DNA of 29,691 nt from an uncultured ANME-2 cluster archaeon (GTDB taxonomy: Archaea; Halobacteriota; Methanosarcinia; Methanosarcinales; Methanogasteraceae), in NCBI GenBank assembly GCA_965195165.1, contig CBDAFH010000090.1, positions 1 through 29,691 on the forward strand, given 5' to 3'. This document shows, piece by piece, positions 2,713 to 21,470 of the stretch (the stretch's first letter is position 1; each line of letters begins with the position of its first letter). A program made the position numbers and the translations under genes. The notes beneath the pieces were generated by a model. That model did no database searches. It was not told the DNA's origin and worked only from the letters and a program-made list of their open reading frames with translations.

Positions 2713-2721
2713 TATTAAATA
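2713..2721 (+). promoter_or_regulatory. TATA box of the truncated cofG copy
   Basis: TATTAAATA lies 33 nt before the ATG. The same motif and spacing occur at 7994 before intact cofG. Confidence 0.6.
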
Positions 2722-3144
2722 GCACCACGCCAAATTTGCACAATCATGCGTTTGCCAGACTTTATCACATTCTCCGGAAACGTCTTCCTGCCGATCACAA
2801 ACGTATGCAGGAACCAGTGCAGGTACTGCGGGTTCAGGCGCGATCCAGCGCATCCCGAAGCGAACCTGATGACCGCAAGCGAAGTTACGAAGATACTCGA
2901 TGCGGGCAAGCGGGCAGGATGCACCGAAGCCCTCTTCACGTTTGGGGAAATGCCAGAAGAGCATCCACAATTCAGGGAATGGATCGAGGATATCGGATAC
3001 TCAAGCGTAATCGATTATCTGATCGATCTCTGCGAGATTGCGATCGATTACGAGCTGCTTCCGCACAGCAATCCGGGTGTGATGGATTCCCATGATATCA
3101 GACGGCTAAAGCCGATTAATGCGAGCGGGGGGCTGATGGCAGAG
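2713..3144 (+). repeat. Direct repeat copy 1A: cofG TATA box plus first 133 codons
   Basis: Ungapped match to 7994-8425 at offset 5281. About 38 mismatches in 399 coding nt by manual count (about 90%). Confidence 0.97.
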
Positions 3145-3168
3145 TCTACACGTTCAATGAGATTGTGA
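2746..3168 (+). pseudogene. cofG: 3'-truncated duplicate of cofG (133 cofG-derived codons plus 7 unrelated residues)
   Basis: Keeps the CRNQCRYC radical-SAM motif. Homology to 8027-9028 stops at about 3144. Confidence 0.92.
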
Positions 3169-3239
3169 CAGGCGATCCCAACCACGGCGGTGCGGTCAAT
3201 GTAACAGTGTGGTGATCGCTCTTTAGAGAGAAGTCCGCG

Positions 3240-3395
3240 GCGAATGGCTGGAAATACGGGTGGGAGTGGGGGGAGTATACGGTCAGAATAGATACGACAA
3301 ATCCTGAAGTACCGGTGGTATTATCGTCAACGCATCCGGATACGGGTGTTGATGGGCTGATGGACAAAAGGTTTAAATTAGATGTGTATGCGTGA
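3240..3395 (+). pseudogene. Remnant of an Ig-like surface-protein gene
   Basis: A startless frame reads WGEYTVRIDTTNPEVPVVLSSTHPD, resembling the DTTxP...SSTHP linker of Ig-like surface domains. Confidence 0.4.
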
Positions 3396-3427
3396 CTAAA
3401 TGCTACAAAAAGAAGAGGGCGAATAAC

Positions 3428-4702
3428 ATGAATAGCAGAACCATAATAGTGATATTGTCCGCAGTGGTGATCGCTGCGGTATTATCCGGATGCGTTGAAG
3501 AGTTATCGGATCACGGAATTGAAACGGTAGATCCGACACCGCAACTGAATGCGACACCGAGTGCAACGCCCATATCAAAGGCAACGCCAAGTCCGTTACA
3601 GATACTCACTCCAGAAGCAACACTGCCGAGATCTAATATGGCATTGAGCAATTATCCAAAACTGTTTGGGAAGGATGGGATAATCGTAATCGGAGAGAAT
3701 GCTAACAAAACTCTTGAATACTGGGGAAGAACATCTCCTCGGTACCCACATCTTACATGGATGATTAGAGGTTCCGAGACAATAGCCAAAAACTTGTACA
3801 ACATCACAGGGAATACCCCTGTGATTAAAACTGATGCAGAGCTTACAGAGCGCGATAGAACAGAGTGCAACCTAATCCTTCTCGGAAATCCGCTTCAAGT
3901 ATCGGTTGAAGGACGTCCTCCTGATGCCAATACTGTAATCACTGAAATATACGAATCAAATCCCCCTATGAAAAGGGTGACACGCAATTACCCGGGACGG
4001 TGGAAAGGAGTATTGGAACTTTTTAAAAACCCATGGAATCCGGAAAAGCACATATTAATCGTTTCCGGAAGTGAAGATCGTGGAATAAAGGCTGCGCTTG
4101 CAAAGTTAGAAGGGATCCATGAGATAAACGAAACCTGCATTATTGTAGAGTGTGAGAGCGAACAAAAAGAGATTCACCATGAGATTGACACAACACCGGC
4201 ATTGGCAGGATTATTAGAACCTTATATTTCTAACATAACGATGGAGGACATCGGTTTTGAAGTCACGAAAACAAAGGAGGTACGTTCCTTGAATAGTATT
4301 GGTAAACCAAATGTTCCTTTTCTAATTAAACACTTTAAAATCCCAGGAAATTCATACGTAGGGTTGGTAAACGTTACTTTTAAGAATCCTGTTGAAATTA
4401 ACAATATATTTATAAAACCTGTACAACCAGCGGTGATGGGCAGTGCTGATGATTATCACTGGTTAAATTACACACCACCACCCTATACGATCGACAACGA
4501 AACATACGCATCGCATGAATTATATCCTGGAGAAGAATATAAATATTGGCCCAGTACTGATGATAGGATTCAAGAAGGTGAAGTATTGGTTCACATCTTC
4601 CCTATTCAGTACATCCCGGCGGATCGGAGGATCATCGCATACAAAAATGCAACAATTTCAATATTTTATCGTGTGCCTGTGCCGGAGGACGACTATTCAT
4701 GA
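3428..4702 (+). CDS. Lipoprotein with Pro/Thr linker, S-layer-like alpha/beta domain and C-terminal peptidase-C25 (gingipain) propeptide-like domain
   Basis: Lipobox LSGC follows a hydrophobic helix, then a TPxxTP linker and NLILLGNP...NPWNPEKHILIVSGSEDRG. The C-terminal GKPNVP..KIP...PVQP...YASHELYPG...IFPIQYIP matches the propeptide-C25 pattern. ATGA overlap with the next gene; TTTAAATT box at about 3372. Confidence 0.7.
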   Translation: MNSRTIIVILSAVVIAAVLSGCVEELSDHGIETVDPTPQLNATPSATPISKATPSPLQILTPEATLPRSNMALSNYPKLFGKDGIIVIGENANKTLEYWGRTSPRYPHLTWMIRGSETIAKNLYNITGNTPVIKTDAELTERDRTECNLILLGNPLQVSVEGRPPDANTVITEIYESNPPMKRVTRNYPGRWKGVLELFKNPWNPEKHILIVSGSEDRGIKAALAKLEGIHEINETCIIVECESEQKEIHHEIDTTPALAGLLEPYISNITMEDIGFEVTKTKEVRSLNSIGKPNVPFLIKHFKIPGNSYVGLVNVTFKNPVEINNIFIKPVQPAVMGSADDYHWLNYTPPPYTIDNETYASHELYPGEEYKYWPSTDDRIQEGEVLVHIFPIQYIPADRRIIAYKNATISIFYRVPVPEDDYS

Positions 4703-20035: not shown

Positions 20036-20127
20036 CGAGTTACACTGAATATTTGGGATGTTTCTGGCGCGGGACGAATGCTAAAACGCTCTTTGTTATG
20101 CCAAAGATAAGGGAGACAATGCAATGA
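19942..20127 (+). pseudogene. Chimeric ORF: truncated chorismate mutase N-terminus plus 30 unrelated residues
   Basis: [31 protein letters not shown], then unrelated sequence. Its stop overlaps the methyltransferase ATG (ATGA). Confidence 0.85.
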
Positions 20128-20931
20128 GTAACGCCAATCCTATTGACCTGCTTTTCGGGGGTATGGAGAAACTGGGTCCCGGGAGTGATTTTGATACGAT
20201 AAAGGTTCTCGATATGCTACCACAGTCACCCCCTGAATTGATTGTGGATGCAGGGTGTGGCGCGGGACGACACACATTGGCGCTGGCAAACCAGCTCCAA
20301 ATGATAGTGCATGCAGTTGATTCCTACCAACCGTTCTTGGCCAGCCTCGTCCAACGCGCCAAGGAGGCGGGAATTAGGCACCTTGTTCAAACACACTGTA
20401 TGGACATGGCAGACATTCCAAACACGTTTCAGCAAATTGACCTTCTATGGTCTGAGGGGGCAGCTTACAATATTGGATTTCCCAATGCGCTCAAGATATG
20501 GTACTCCGCTGTGAAACCCGGCGGTTTCGCAGTTGTCAGCGAGCTGTCATGGTTGCGATCCGACGTCCCGGATGATGTGCGCCAGTTCTTCAACGCTGGC
20601 TATCCTGATATGCGCAGTGCCGATGAAAATAGGGCTGTAGCGGAGGACGCTGGCTACAGTGTCCTCGCTACGCATACTCTACCGAGAGAGACGTGGGTCG
20701 AGGGGTACTACGACATACTGGAACCCCGAGCCCAACGCCTTCTTGACCATCCGGACAAAGATGTCAGAGCCTTTGCAGCCGAGACCATAGAAGAGATTCG
20801 AGTCTTTGGCTGCTCAGAAGACAGCTATGGGTATGTATTCTATGTAATGGAGAGGGGCTAACAAGATGCATCGACACGTACTTTGGAAAGCCGCGCTTCA
20901 CACGCCTTTCCAAAGACGGTCATGCACAACG
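20096..20931 (+). mobile_element. Integron-type gene cassette (methyltransferase plus attC)
   Basis: Begins at G/TTATGCC, 29 nt before the ATG, with an SD (GGGAG). Single ORF whose stop lies in the inverse core. Ends at the G/TT of the attC. Confidence 0.75.
20124..20861 (+). CDS. Class I SAM-dependent methyltransferase
   Basis: IVDAGCGAG motif I, VHAVD, HCMDM, IDLLWSEGAAY, VKPGG..VVSE. Confidence 0.9.
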   Translation: MSNANPIDLLFGGMEKLGPGSDFDTIKVLDMLPQSPPELIVDAGCGAGRHTLALANQLQMIVHAVDSYQPFLASLVQRAKEAGIRHLVQTHCMDMADIPNTFQQIDLLWSEGAAYNIGFPNALKIWYSAVKPGGFAVVSELSWLRSDVPDDVRQFFNAGYPDMRSADENRAVAEDAGYSVLATHTLPRETWVEGYYDILEPRAQRLLDHPDKDVRAFAAETIEEIRVFGCSEDSYGYVFYVMERG

Positions 20932-20937
20932 TTGGGT
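20856..20937 (+). other. attC recombination site (59-be type)
   Basis: GGCTAAC-AAGAT-GCAT[C]GAC[A]CGT[A]CTTTGGAAAG-loop-CTTTCCAAAG-ACG-GTCATGC-ACAAC-GTTGGGT. It has AAC/GTT cores, paired L boxes, and extra-helical C then A, as in VCR-type sites. The left spacer is 1 nt longer than canonical. Confidence 0.82.
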
Positions 20938-21027
20938 GTCTAAGGTACCCATGAAAAACATTTCGTAACCACTCGGGTGTGTTGATTGGTCGTACGATAG
21001 CGATCCTGTACGTTATGGTAAGAAAAA

Positions 21028-21107
21028 TAACCGCAGAGGGCGCGGAGGTTCGCAGAGTGGTTAACCGTTTATTCCCCCTCCGCGTCCCTCTGCGCACTCT
21101 GCGGTTA
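21028..21107. repeat. REP/MITE-like palindrome built from 9-10-nt CGC(A/G)GAG units
   Basis: TAACCGCAGAG-GGCGCGGAG-GTTCGCAGAG ... CTCCGCGTCC-CTCTGCGCA-CTCTGCGGTTA. Confidence 0.8.
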
Positions 21108-21303
21108 AATTCTCTGTTTGGTTGCAGTATCTACCATGTCAGGGGCAGTCCCGGTATATTGAAGTCTCCTGATGGTGGTTTTAGGTACCTGAGTAGTTAC
21201 AACATTTCATCTAATATAGAAAAAATAGGTTTTGACAAATGGTTTCGGAATACTATTGATCCTTGTAATTTGGAGGGGTTGGAGATAGCAAGAGTGATTG
21301 AGC

Positions 21304-21470
21304 CAAAACTTCATGCGTACGGTAGAGATATACTAAAATAGAGTATCAACGAGGATAATACAAACGAGGCGATAGCATGGAACTGCTGGATATCAGAGAA
21401 AAAATTGAAACAATCGATAAGGAGATATTGAATTTGATCGCCGACCGTACGGATCTTGCAAGCACGGTTC
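21304..21470 (+). repeat. Direct repeat copy 3B (promoter and 5' end of the intact chorismate mutase gene)
   Basis: Partner of 19869-20035. Confidence 0.97.

Follow-up and report, generated by a model that had tools for sequence, protein, structure and literature searches.

The window examined here is a stretch of 29,691 nucleotides that forms contig C90 of a metagenome-assembled genome (MAG G000; NCBI GenBank GCA_965195165.1, contig CBDAFH010000090.1) of an uncultured ANME-2 (anaerobic methanotrophic archaea) cluster archaeon of the Methanogasteraceae. It carries four inserts of accessory DNA, at the genes for CofG (insert 1), a Na+/H+ antiporter and a SpoIIM-like protein (insert 2), chorismate mutase (insert 3), and deoxyhypusine synthase (the ATPase insert), and direct repeats that match the duplicated target segment flank all four of them. 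The genes of the window are archaeal and methanogen-like, and include those for deoxyhypusine synthase, CofG, DnaJ, the D subunit of the A/V-ATPase, aEF-2, a DUF63 protein, and a homoaconitase small-subunit fusion. The MAG comprises 1.87 Mb in 234 contigs (N50 9.6 kb) and is 78% complete with 2.6% contamination; the closest named relatives are "Methanosarcinales archaeon UBA203" (G005) and "B131_G9" (G006), from Guaymas, and DNA of the window occurs in cold-seep and marine-sediment metagenomes of 11 studies. Comparisons were made with 11 sister genomes of the same genus (G001–G011), of which G004 is the closest relative (92–98% identical; 97% in the flanks of insert 3), and with Logan contigs of four metagenome runs, which show the presence of forms and not their frequencies, and which break inside repeats.

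Three of the repeat pairs had been proposed from the letters alone (the sequence-only reading), and all three were recovered by a repeat finder and by whole-genome self-BLAST with E-values of 7e-22 or lower. Pair A, at cofG, is a direct, ungapped repeat of 426 bp with 41 mismatches (90.4% identity, E 1e-165); the 432 bp first put forward include six bases that match poorly. Pair B, at the antiporter gene, is a direct repeat of 81 bp with nine mismatches (89%, E 7e-22), of which the 76 bp with eight mismatches reported earlier are the core. Pair C, at the chorismate mutase gene, is a direct repeat of 167 bp with 13 mismatches (19869–20035 and 21304–21470, E 1e-63) that extends, with one gap, to 175 bp at 91% (Table 1). 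The ATPase insert, a DUF234 ATPase gene between diverged deoxyhypusine synthase 3′ ends of about 30 bp, had been passed over, as had the inner repeat of insert 2, the mvhD-like 3′ end beside it, and the miniature inverted-repeat transposable element (MITE) of insert 3. No inverted repeat of at least 40 bp was detected in the window by the repeat finder. As the sequence-only reading had noted, every interrupted gene (cofG, antiporter, SpoIIM-like, chorismate mutase) keeps one intact copy, and no recombinase or transposase was found with Pfam among the 30 open reading frames (ORFs) of the window; the window also has no tRNA gene, and no similarity was found among the cargo ends of inserts 1–3. 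A diversity-generating retroelement was considered and rejected, the mismatches being of all substitution types and in both directions, with no reverse transcriptase among the window ORFs. A transposon or insertion sequence was likewise rejected for the four inserts, in which neither a transposase nor terminal inverted repeats nor a short identical duplication of the target is present.

Table 1. Target copies, cargos, and inner features of the four inserts (positions in the window).
Feature	Position	Strand	Basis
Deoxyhypusine synthase 3′ end with stop codon, intact copy of the ~28-bp target	1068–1095	+	Sequence; empty sites of G001 and G002
DUF234/ATPase_2 gene (ORF 1123–2541), candidate defence protein	1096–2646	+	Pfam; PADLOC PDC-S27, E 3e-45
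Diverged second deoxyhypusine synthase gene end, with 5-bp internal duplication	2647–2678	+	Sequence
Copy A1: cofG promoter (TATA box) and first 131 codons, truncated decaying pseudogene fragment	2713–3138	+	TIGR03550 positions 1–132 of 322
Insert 1 cargo: C25-propeptide protein (3392–4702), C25 peptidase (4699–5757), peptidase C-terminus (5708–7882)	3139–7993	+	Pfam
Copy A2: promoter and 5′ part of intact cofG	7994–8419	+	Closest to the allele of G003 (94.4%)
Copy B1: 3′ end of the intact Na+/H+ antiporter gene (12014–13204)	13106–13186	+	Repeat finder; alignment
mvhD (FlpD) fragment: last ~44 codons, stop at 13285–13283, ~95 bp of downstream DNA	13187–13417	-	87% to the contig C98 locus
Inner repeat D5, mvhD stop region (partner 14450–14495)	13256–13301	.	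Repeat finder
Insert 2 cargo: DUF2806/Abi-alpha-like gene (13416–14072) and small ORF (14089–14364)	13416–14364	-	Pfam
Inner repeat D5′, shorter second copy of the mvhD stop region (46 bp, 85% to D5)	14450–14495	.	Repeat finder
Copy B2: non-functional antiporter 3′ fragment overlapping the SpoIIM-like stop	14497–14577	+	Alignment
Copy C1: chorismate mutase promoter and 32 codons, truncated	19869–20042	+	Alignment; left part matches G004
Integron-type cassette: GTTATGC (20095–20101), S-adenosylmethionine (SAM) methyltransferase (20124–20861), 82-nt attC-like hairpin (20856–20937, GGCTAAC ... GTTGGGT)	20095–20937	+	
MITE, 236 bp, terminal inverted repeats GTAACCACTC ... GAGTAGTTAC, 8-bp duplication AACATTTC (20957–20964 and 21201–21208)	20965–21200	.	
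Copy C2: promoter and 5′ part of the intact chorismate mutase gene	21304–21478	+	Alignment

Sister genomes supply both occupied and empty forms of these sites, the empty form having a single target copy that overlaps both flanks. Insert 1 is missing from G010 (gene order deoxyhypusine synthase, ATPase, cofG) and from G001 and G002 (deoxyhypusine synthase, cofG); it is present with its left copy in G005 and G007, and at least the 3′ part of its cargo lies beside cofG on contigs of G006, G011, and G009. Insert 2 is missing from G004 and G007. The site of insert 3 is empty in G004, G001, G003, G007, G009, and G011 and occupied, with identical junctions, in G005 and G006. The ATPase insert is present in G010 and G005 and absent from G001, G002, and G003, in which the deoxyhypusine synthase gene leads directly into the upstream region of cofG; in G001 and G002 the sequence of 1068–1095 continues without interruption into that of 2679 onward. 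Independent seep metagenomes contain empty-form joints too: run X6 has those of inserts 1 and 2, and run X7 that of insert 1. Because sister genomes of the same genus lack the enclosed DNA, the four inserts are true insertions with long target duplications. The sequence-only reading had looked to such single-copy sites for confirmation and to inserts common to all relatives for refutation; single-copy sites were seen in G004, G010, G001, G002, and others, and several sister genomes are thus empty.

The pattern extends well beyond the window. Local pairs were collected by self-BLAST (50–590 bp, 80–97% identity, 0.4–9 kb apart, tandem arrays removed), which yielded 49 direct pairs against one inverted in this MAG, 23 against none in the sister genome G007 (393 kb of long contigs), and five against three in 400 kb of a control, the complete genome of a member of another family in the order; 72 of 73 pairs in the two genomes are direct (binomial p = 1.6e-20; Fisher p = 0.0025 against the control). 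The 49 include some adjacent paralogues; in about 36 a cargo lies between two gene ends. The recurrence in this lineage that had been surmised from three cases is thereby upheld. Two further pairs, on contigs C41 and C167, are empty in G004, and the C167 site is empty in G001 and G005 too. Cargo with database matches is mostly defence-like: a Type IV restriction enzyme, a DUF4365 protein, a YhcG/PDC-S02 nuclease, an AAA plus TPR protein, a ThsB-like TIR protein beside a Schlafen/AlbA protein, a DruE/BrxH-like helicase, and a nucleotidyltransferase with an HTH partner. Pfam searches found no integrase or transposase in 30 cargo proteins from these other loci, and the MAG (78% complete) has no PF00589 match. 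Across 36 boundaries, no hexamer recurs at more than four. Islands that target tRNA genes were rejected as an explanation, since neither the window nor any of 27 such loci has a tRNA gene; a string resembling a tRNA at the edge of the C167 cargo was not confirmed. When cargo ends were searched for donor loci by BLAST, 24 of 98 matched other contigs and no further junction was readable, the clearest matches being MITEs, or contigs in which homology continues through the repeat, and not donors.

Among the loci outside the window, C41 holds the youngest pair analysed. There a 311-bp pair at 96.8% identity surrounds 1.1 kb that is missing from G004, each copy is 91–93% identical to G004, and the two have many common states that differ from G004, private changes in each, and no single switch point. 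The C41 copies are sister sequences within this genome, each the closest relative of the other, as would be expected if insertion had duplicated the target itself. Copies that group together within one genome, an outcome that the sequence-only reading had named as refuting its view (plain tandem duplication and decay), are found at C41 and not at inserts 1 and 3. At C167 the gene end is very conserved and offers few informative sites for site-wise polarity. Tandem copies with little or no cargo also occur in G000, on contigs C43 (867–1392; 262 bp, 96.6%, adjacent), C35 (3503–4112; 298 bp, 96.3%, 14-bp spacer), and C180 (2186–3834; 821 bp, 87%, 7-bp spacer), and it is possible that these tandem duplications are precursors or remnants of cargo-bearing pairs.

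Insert 2 is the event in the window whose donor and junctions can be read. Both of its ends are copied from an mvhD locus, of which an intact form, 87% identical, lies on contig C98 of the same genome. At the left junction CCCACA (13181–13186), the last bases of B1, meets native TCCACA, a microhomology of 5–6 bp; at the right junction the first 11 bases of B2, GCGGACTCGGT (mvhD), meet native GCGGTCTCGGT, a microhomology of 10/11 bp. B1 is native up to the junction, and B2 has six further distinguishing states that occur in no other genome, all of them where no gene needs the sequence; these differences of B2 are decay and not a foreign allele. The SpoIIM-like gene is intact at 14561–15133 (minus strand). 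The cargo gene between the mvhD-derived ends matches TIGR03899 at 89 bits, under the cut-off of 155.65 bits for that family. Since the inner repeats D5 and D5′ bracket the DUF2806 cargo, this cargo once stood at an mvhD 3′ end, with that end duplicated around it. In run X7 one contig has just this arrangement, the cargo adjoining an mvhD end (backward joint 14441 to 13271), and the joint is better read as cargo beside an intact mvhD than as a circle. The antiporter gene of G003 (contig C68, L075 2772–7732) leads, through the same left junction that in the window opens onto an mvhD fragment of only 231 bp, into a complete mvhD-hdrA/B/C-like cluster, where mvhD is a full-length FlpD gene with the hdrA/B/C-like genes after it; contig C136 of G010 has the same left junction running into mvhD, and in both genomes the copy on the SpoIIM side has a different left boundary. 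The site of insert 2 has therefore been rearranged more than once. The mvhD-hdr cluster, which belongs to core energy metabolism, thus stands at differing chromosomal places within one genus.

The copies at cofG have a different history. The intact gene (8027–9028) matches TIGR03550 at 432 bits. Copies A1 and A2 do not form a sister pair, A2 falling with the allele of G003 and A1 on a long branch. They differ in 28 cofG codons, 13 of them synonymous, the latter count agreeing with that of the sequence-only reading, which had taken it as a sign of two once-functional orthologous alleles and not of decay. That interpretation is not supported, for A1 has eight private non-synonymous changes at residues that are invariant or nearly so in 12 relatives, clustered at both ends, as in a decaying pseudogene; the middle of A1 is the majority allele with no private change, and the synonymous differences are mostly polymorphisms common to other species or changes private to the functional A2. 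A1 is accordingly an old, decaying fragment that recombination has also patched. G005 has a tandem array here: a cargo 3′ end comes first, then a middle cofG fragment, then a second cargo. Another contig of G005, which would adjoin the array, holds a cargo variant only 81% identical to that of the window. The array indicates that the repeats serve accretion or amplification and, together with the empty-form joints in metagenome contigs, it agrees with the earlier proposal that the repeats allow cargo to be lost and amplified. In the cargo of insert 1, ORF 5708–7882 carries FG-GAP, CARDB, and dockerin domains (Pfam), and the Peptidase_C25 domain crosses into it, in another frame (5701–5757), from ORF 4699–5757, so that this surface protease is frameshifted. 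Upstream, at the ATPase insert, the 57 bp just 3′ of the DUF234 ATPase gene (2589–2645) and the first ~70 bp of the gene (1138–1208) have copies at 84–93% identity on many contigs in all genomes of the genus, which suggests that the DUF234 ATPase genes make up one multicopy family whose ends are conserved.

The cargo of insert 3 differs from the others in its ends. The methyltransferase has homologues at 55–81% identity in Methanothrix, Deltaproteobacteria, Verrucomicrobiae, Acidobacteriota, Aromatoleum, and other bacteria (loci L043–L067), and in many of these, archaeal and bacterial, a GTTAGGC-type box lies some 25 nt upstream of the start codon and the end reads GCCTAAC (GTTRRRY/RYYYAAC framing). 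Its attC-like hairpin is imperfect, with fold z-scores of -4.4 and -5.9. By these sequence features the cargo is identified as a genuine integron-type cassette, of a family common to archaea and bacteria, which fits the cross-domain traffic of cassettes described for archaeal integrons (Ghaly et al., 2022; PMC9668308). No integron context was found around it: no IntI scored above the cut-off in 12 genomes of the genus, and attC-like sites were not enriched in a simple regex-plus-fold scan (7 against 15 in shuffled DNA), which is crude because it misses the methyltransferase site itself (one mismatch in R″). The hairpin upstream of the DUF2806 cargo is weaker (z-scores of -2.6 and -3.7), and no attC follows that gene. 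An integron as the general mechanism was rejected, cargo 3 alone having convincing cassette ends and the genus having no IntI.

The MITE downstream of the cassette has the inverted repeats and target duplication of a transposon, all but the transposase. It is absent from G005 and G006, and the exact MITE-less joint (20956 to 21201) occurs in run X6; dozens of copies at 78–86% identity are found in G002, G009, G010, and G011, and only about four in this MAG. A 120-aa ORF that lies over the MITE (20979–21341) is probably not a gene. On the other side of the cargo, the promoter and start codon of C1 open a short chimeric ORF (19869–20127) whose stop overlaps the methyltransferase start (ATGA, 20124–20127), and it would fit that the spare chorismate mutase promoter now drives the cargo, because the left half of C1 is unusually conserved (one change in 90 bp relative to G004).

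Insert 3 is found in three non-sister genomes and is absent from at least eight. The intact archaeal chorismate mutase gene occupies 21377–21661, and C1 and C2 differ in 11 codons, five of them synonymous; the sequence-only reading had the five right and counted 10 in all. Site by site, G004 matches C1 to the left of about codon 4 and C2 to the right of it, and in comparison with the native allele the right part of C1 differs at 11/85 sites and the left part at 1/90 (p = 0.002). Most of the differing states in the right part of C1 are ancestral or those of clade II, as judged from outgroup genera, and three are common only to the cargo-linked copies of G005 and G006; since these three are exclusive to cargo-linked copies, insertion 3 arose once. 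Third-position divergence is lower in the methyltransferase than in the flanks, both in G005 (6.1% against 12.3%, p = 0.005) and in G006 (9.0% against 17.8%, p = 0.0008), and cargo 3 is therefore younger than its flanks. The simplest reading of these sequences would be a single duplicative insertion long ago, after which homologous recombination moved the insert between species and removed it from some; Campbell integration of an excised circle would be one way of transfer, and a double crossover of linear DNA another. Other DNA replaces 38 bp upstream of the chorismate mutase promoter in G002 (L039 1025–1498, 474 bp) and G010 (L041 1361–1498, ~140 bp). The DNA abutting the promoter is identical in G002, G010, and the right-hand copy of G005 and ends exactly at the start of C2, a recurrent breakpoint.

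Two observations concern the assembly and the window at large. The ORF at 24510–25988 (minus strand) joins an aconitase C-terminal (LeuD-like small subunit) domain to a class I SAM methyltransferase domain, an unusual fusion. Bases 1–59 of contig C158 of G000 are the Illumina TruSeq universal adapter (AATGATACGGCGACC ... GCTCTTCCGATCT), a contamination of the public assembly.

The reading favoured here, and held with about even confidence, is that the pairs arose as long target-site duplications when accessory DNA was inserted illegitimately, without a recombinase, at housekeeping gene ends, most likely through microhomology-guided template switching. A nascent strand would leave the target during replication or repair, copy DNA of another locus or of a co-resident molecule, and re-enter the target 30–430 bp upstream of its exit point; end-joining into a widely staggered break would be the mechanistic equivalent. 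The spare target copy would then decay. Later spread and loss are explained by homologous recombination, which between the copies could delete the cargo precisely or amplify it, and which through the copies or the flanks could carry the cargo into related species and make the copies allelic mosaics. Since what is duplicated is the promoter or the terminator-proximal part of a gene, each neighbouring gene would keep an intact copy and the insertion would be tolerated, and selection for events that spare both neighbours would explain why promoters and overlapping gene ends are what is duplicated. Each event is at its own locus with its own cargo, and each thus needed a separate illegitimate first step, one that evidently yields a direct duplication of 30–430 bp. 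Both the template-switch or staggered-break step and the action of one mechanism in all events are what we infer from these patterns. Of the view given by the sequence-only reading, the recombinase-free, recurrent, and excisable nature of the inserts is retained, and the origin of the duplications in homology-facilitated illegitimate recombination (HFIR) or Campbell integration is not.

Several points weigh against template switching. Microhomology at both junctions, with an insert copied from another locus, was readable at only one of the four inserts, insert 2. Insert 2 is itself composite, and its right junction may be a secondary microhomology deletion and not an insertion junction, because its left junction is shared with G003 and G010 and there enters the complete mvhD-hdr cluster. 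The copies of inserts 1 and 3 are not sisters, and an allele imported by Campbell integration may account for them there. No pair of 98–100% identity was seen; short-read assembly would break at such repeats, and the prediction that the copies are identical at birth is therefore tested by C41 alone. Template switching is not known from these organisms.

The alternative with the strongest claim, although an unlikely one, is a Campbell-type pop-in, in which a circle that holds the cargo and a piece of the target from a related strain would integrate by one homologous crossover and leave two chimeric copies at once. Pop-in and pop-out works in archaeal genetics, and insert 3 has much that would be expected of it: G004 matches C1 on the left and C2 on the right of one point near codon 4, the right part of C1 and the left part of C2 carry states of other species, the middle copy of G005 is built exactly as a circle junction would be, and cargo 3 is younger than its flanks. 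The G004 pattern, however, is equally expected after loss of the cargo by recombination between the copies, or with retained ancestral states. The circle, moreover, must already hold the target piece, hence its integration would explain the spread of an insert but not the first event at some 50 loci; the boundaries of insert 2 are microhomologies with the unrelated mvhD locus, and its apparent switch is such a junction itself; the copies at C41 have no single switch point and are sisters within the genome; and contigs from four runs contain no circle junction for any of the three inserts, which is weak evidence. Campbell uptake, as proposed by the sequence-only reading, is thus plausible for the spread of insert 3 (mosaic copies, patchy distribution, halved divergence of the cargo) and is not supported, on insert 2 and C41, as the origin of the pairs. 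HFIR, the other route proposed there, would join linear DNA of a related strain through one homologous arm and an illegitimate joint at the other end, and junction microhomology and allelic mosaicism are among its features. It reportedly (de Vries and Wackernagel, 2002) replaces the anchor, usually deletes recipient DNA, and does not duplicate the anchor. Here the target is duplicated and not replaced at all four inserts, and inserts 2 and 3 lack the predicted combination of a left copy that is native throughout and a right copy that is foreign throughout; HFIR is accordingly very improbable as the origin.

It is improbable that a small tandem duplication of the gene end came first, as a neutral landing pad that received cargo later, or that cargo-free tandems are what is left after loss. 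Cargo-free or nearly cargo-free copies of similar length and divergence do exist in G000 (C43, C35, and C180), and G004 seems to retain both copies at C155, only ~126 bp apart, but two independent events would have had to fall on the same few bases dozens of times, and the cargo of insert 2 is joined by microhomology to both boundaries of the duplication, as for a single event. Remnants of integrative elements that target gene ends, of the e14/21 type, with the recombinase lost or acting in trans and an integron integrase for insert 3, would have the same form, a duplicated gene end with the gene intact; cargo 3 is a true integron-type cassette with an attC-like site, and an enzyme encoded elsewhere could escape a MAG that is 78% complete. 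This explanation is nevertheless rather implausible in view of about 30 cargos without an integrase, a MAG without PF00589, 12 genomes without IntI, targets that include no tRNA gene, boundaries with no common motif, and the attC scan (7 against 15 shuffled), and integron recombination makes no target duplications of 80–430 bp. An assembly that chimerically set two strain variants of one segment in tandem could be suspected from the fragmented MAG (234 contigs, N50 9.6 kb, 2.6% contamination), from Logan unitigs that break inside the repeats, and from contig C158, which starts with an Illumina adapter. The junctions, however, recur in MAGs of other studies (insert 3 in G005 and G006, insert 1 in G005 and G007), G007, with contigs above 190 kb, is even denser in such pairs, and source-run contigs extend across the junction of the insert 1 cargo with A2 and that of C1 with its cargo; because the same junctions occur in independently assembled MAGs, a chimera is scarcely credible.

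How archaea gain single accessory and defence genes without obvious mobile-element machinery is poorly understood, and the duplicative insertions described here offer a signature that can be counted (local diverged direct repeats of gene ends, 72 direct against one inverted in two genomes), natural occupied and empty alleles, and one event with a readable donor locus and junction microhomologies. A tentative extension, less probable than not in our judgement, is that in ANME-2, and perhaps in archaea more widely, recombinase-independent, microhomology-guided duplicative insertion is the main entry of single accessory and defence genes, which protects the neighbouring genes and builds a cassette that homologous recombination can excise, amplify, and transfer. 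If the mechanism is general, it would explain why defence genes stand singly among housekeeping genes in compact archaeal genomes, why such inserts are easily lost and regained, and how, with no integron present, a bacterial-type integron cassette can become fixed in the chromosome of an archaeon. Annotation is affected as well: the spare fragments of genes are listed as short ORFs, and one of them may provide the cargo with a promoter. A literature search returned no description of such a genome-wide pattern in ANME or other archaea, which is not proof of absence.

Parts of the pattern are known from other systems. Prophages e14 and 21 insert in icd, and a diverged duplicate gene end keeps the gene intact; the inserts described here likewise lie in the ends of protein-coding genes with a diverged duplicate whose differences are often synonymous, but those prophages encode an integrase and use a short identical core, whereas here there is no integrase, core, or common motif, and one event has microhomology junctions. 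In Campbell pop-in and pop-out a single crossover of circular DNA leaves direct repeats of the homologous segment around the insert; the direct repeats, the precise loss between them, and the tandem array of G005 are alike, but C41 and insert 2 do not have the reciprocal single-switch signature, and incoming homology is needed in that process. Fork stalling and template switching/microhomology-mediated break-induced replication (FoSTeS/MMBIR) produces templated insertions with flanking duplications and is known mainly from eukaryotes and E. coli; to our knowledge no description presents MMBIR as a way in which archaea routinely gain genes. Insert 2, as a copy of another locus with microhomology at two junctions, the variable length of the target duplications, and the sister copies of C41 resemble its products, with the difference that the replication-based step is here one that we infer. 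In displacement arrays, modules recombine via the conserved part of a gene, and displaced gene ends and cargo accumulate without dedicated recombinases. Such arrays occur at type VI secretion system (T6SS) effector-immunity, contact-dependent inhibition (CDI), and Rhs loci (Kirchberger et al., 2017; PMC5361080). They involve one polymorphic toxin family, of which the own 3′ ends are displaced, unlike the unrelated housekeeping targets seen here (cofG, chorismate mutase, antiporter, deoxyhypusine synthase, pstB-like, and others), where both 5′ and 3′ ends are affected.

The microcin H47 island of E. coli excises and integrates, which gives hybrid repeats whose crossovers fall in several stretches of identity (Azpiroz et al., 2011; PMC3191183). 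It is, like the inserts of the window, an integrase-less insert between imperfect direct repeats; unlike them, it is a single bacterial island, not a genome-wide phenomenon, its mobility is ascribed to host-encoded site-specific functions, and its repeats are not duplicated ends of neighbouring genes. Islands that target the ends of genes such as dusA or trmE are also on record (PMC8409611). As noted for archaeal integrons (Ghaly et al., 2022; PMC9668308), a cluster may lack an integrase and its cassettes may nonetheless be mobile in trans. The methyltransferase cargo of insert 3 departs from these in being a single cassette outside an array, with no attI or IntI nearby and inside a 175-bp target duplication, and it resembles them in its cassette boundaries, its attC-like hairpin, and its relatives in both domains.

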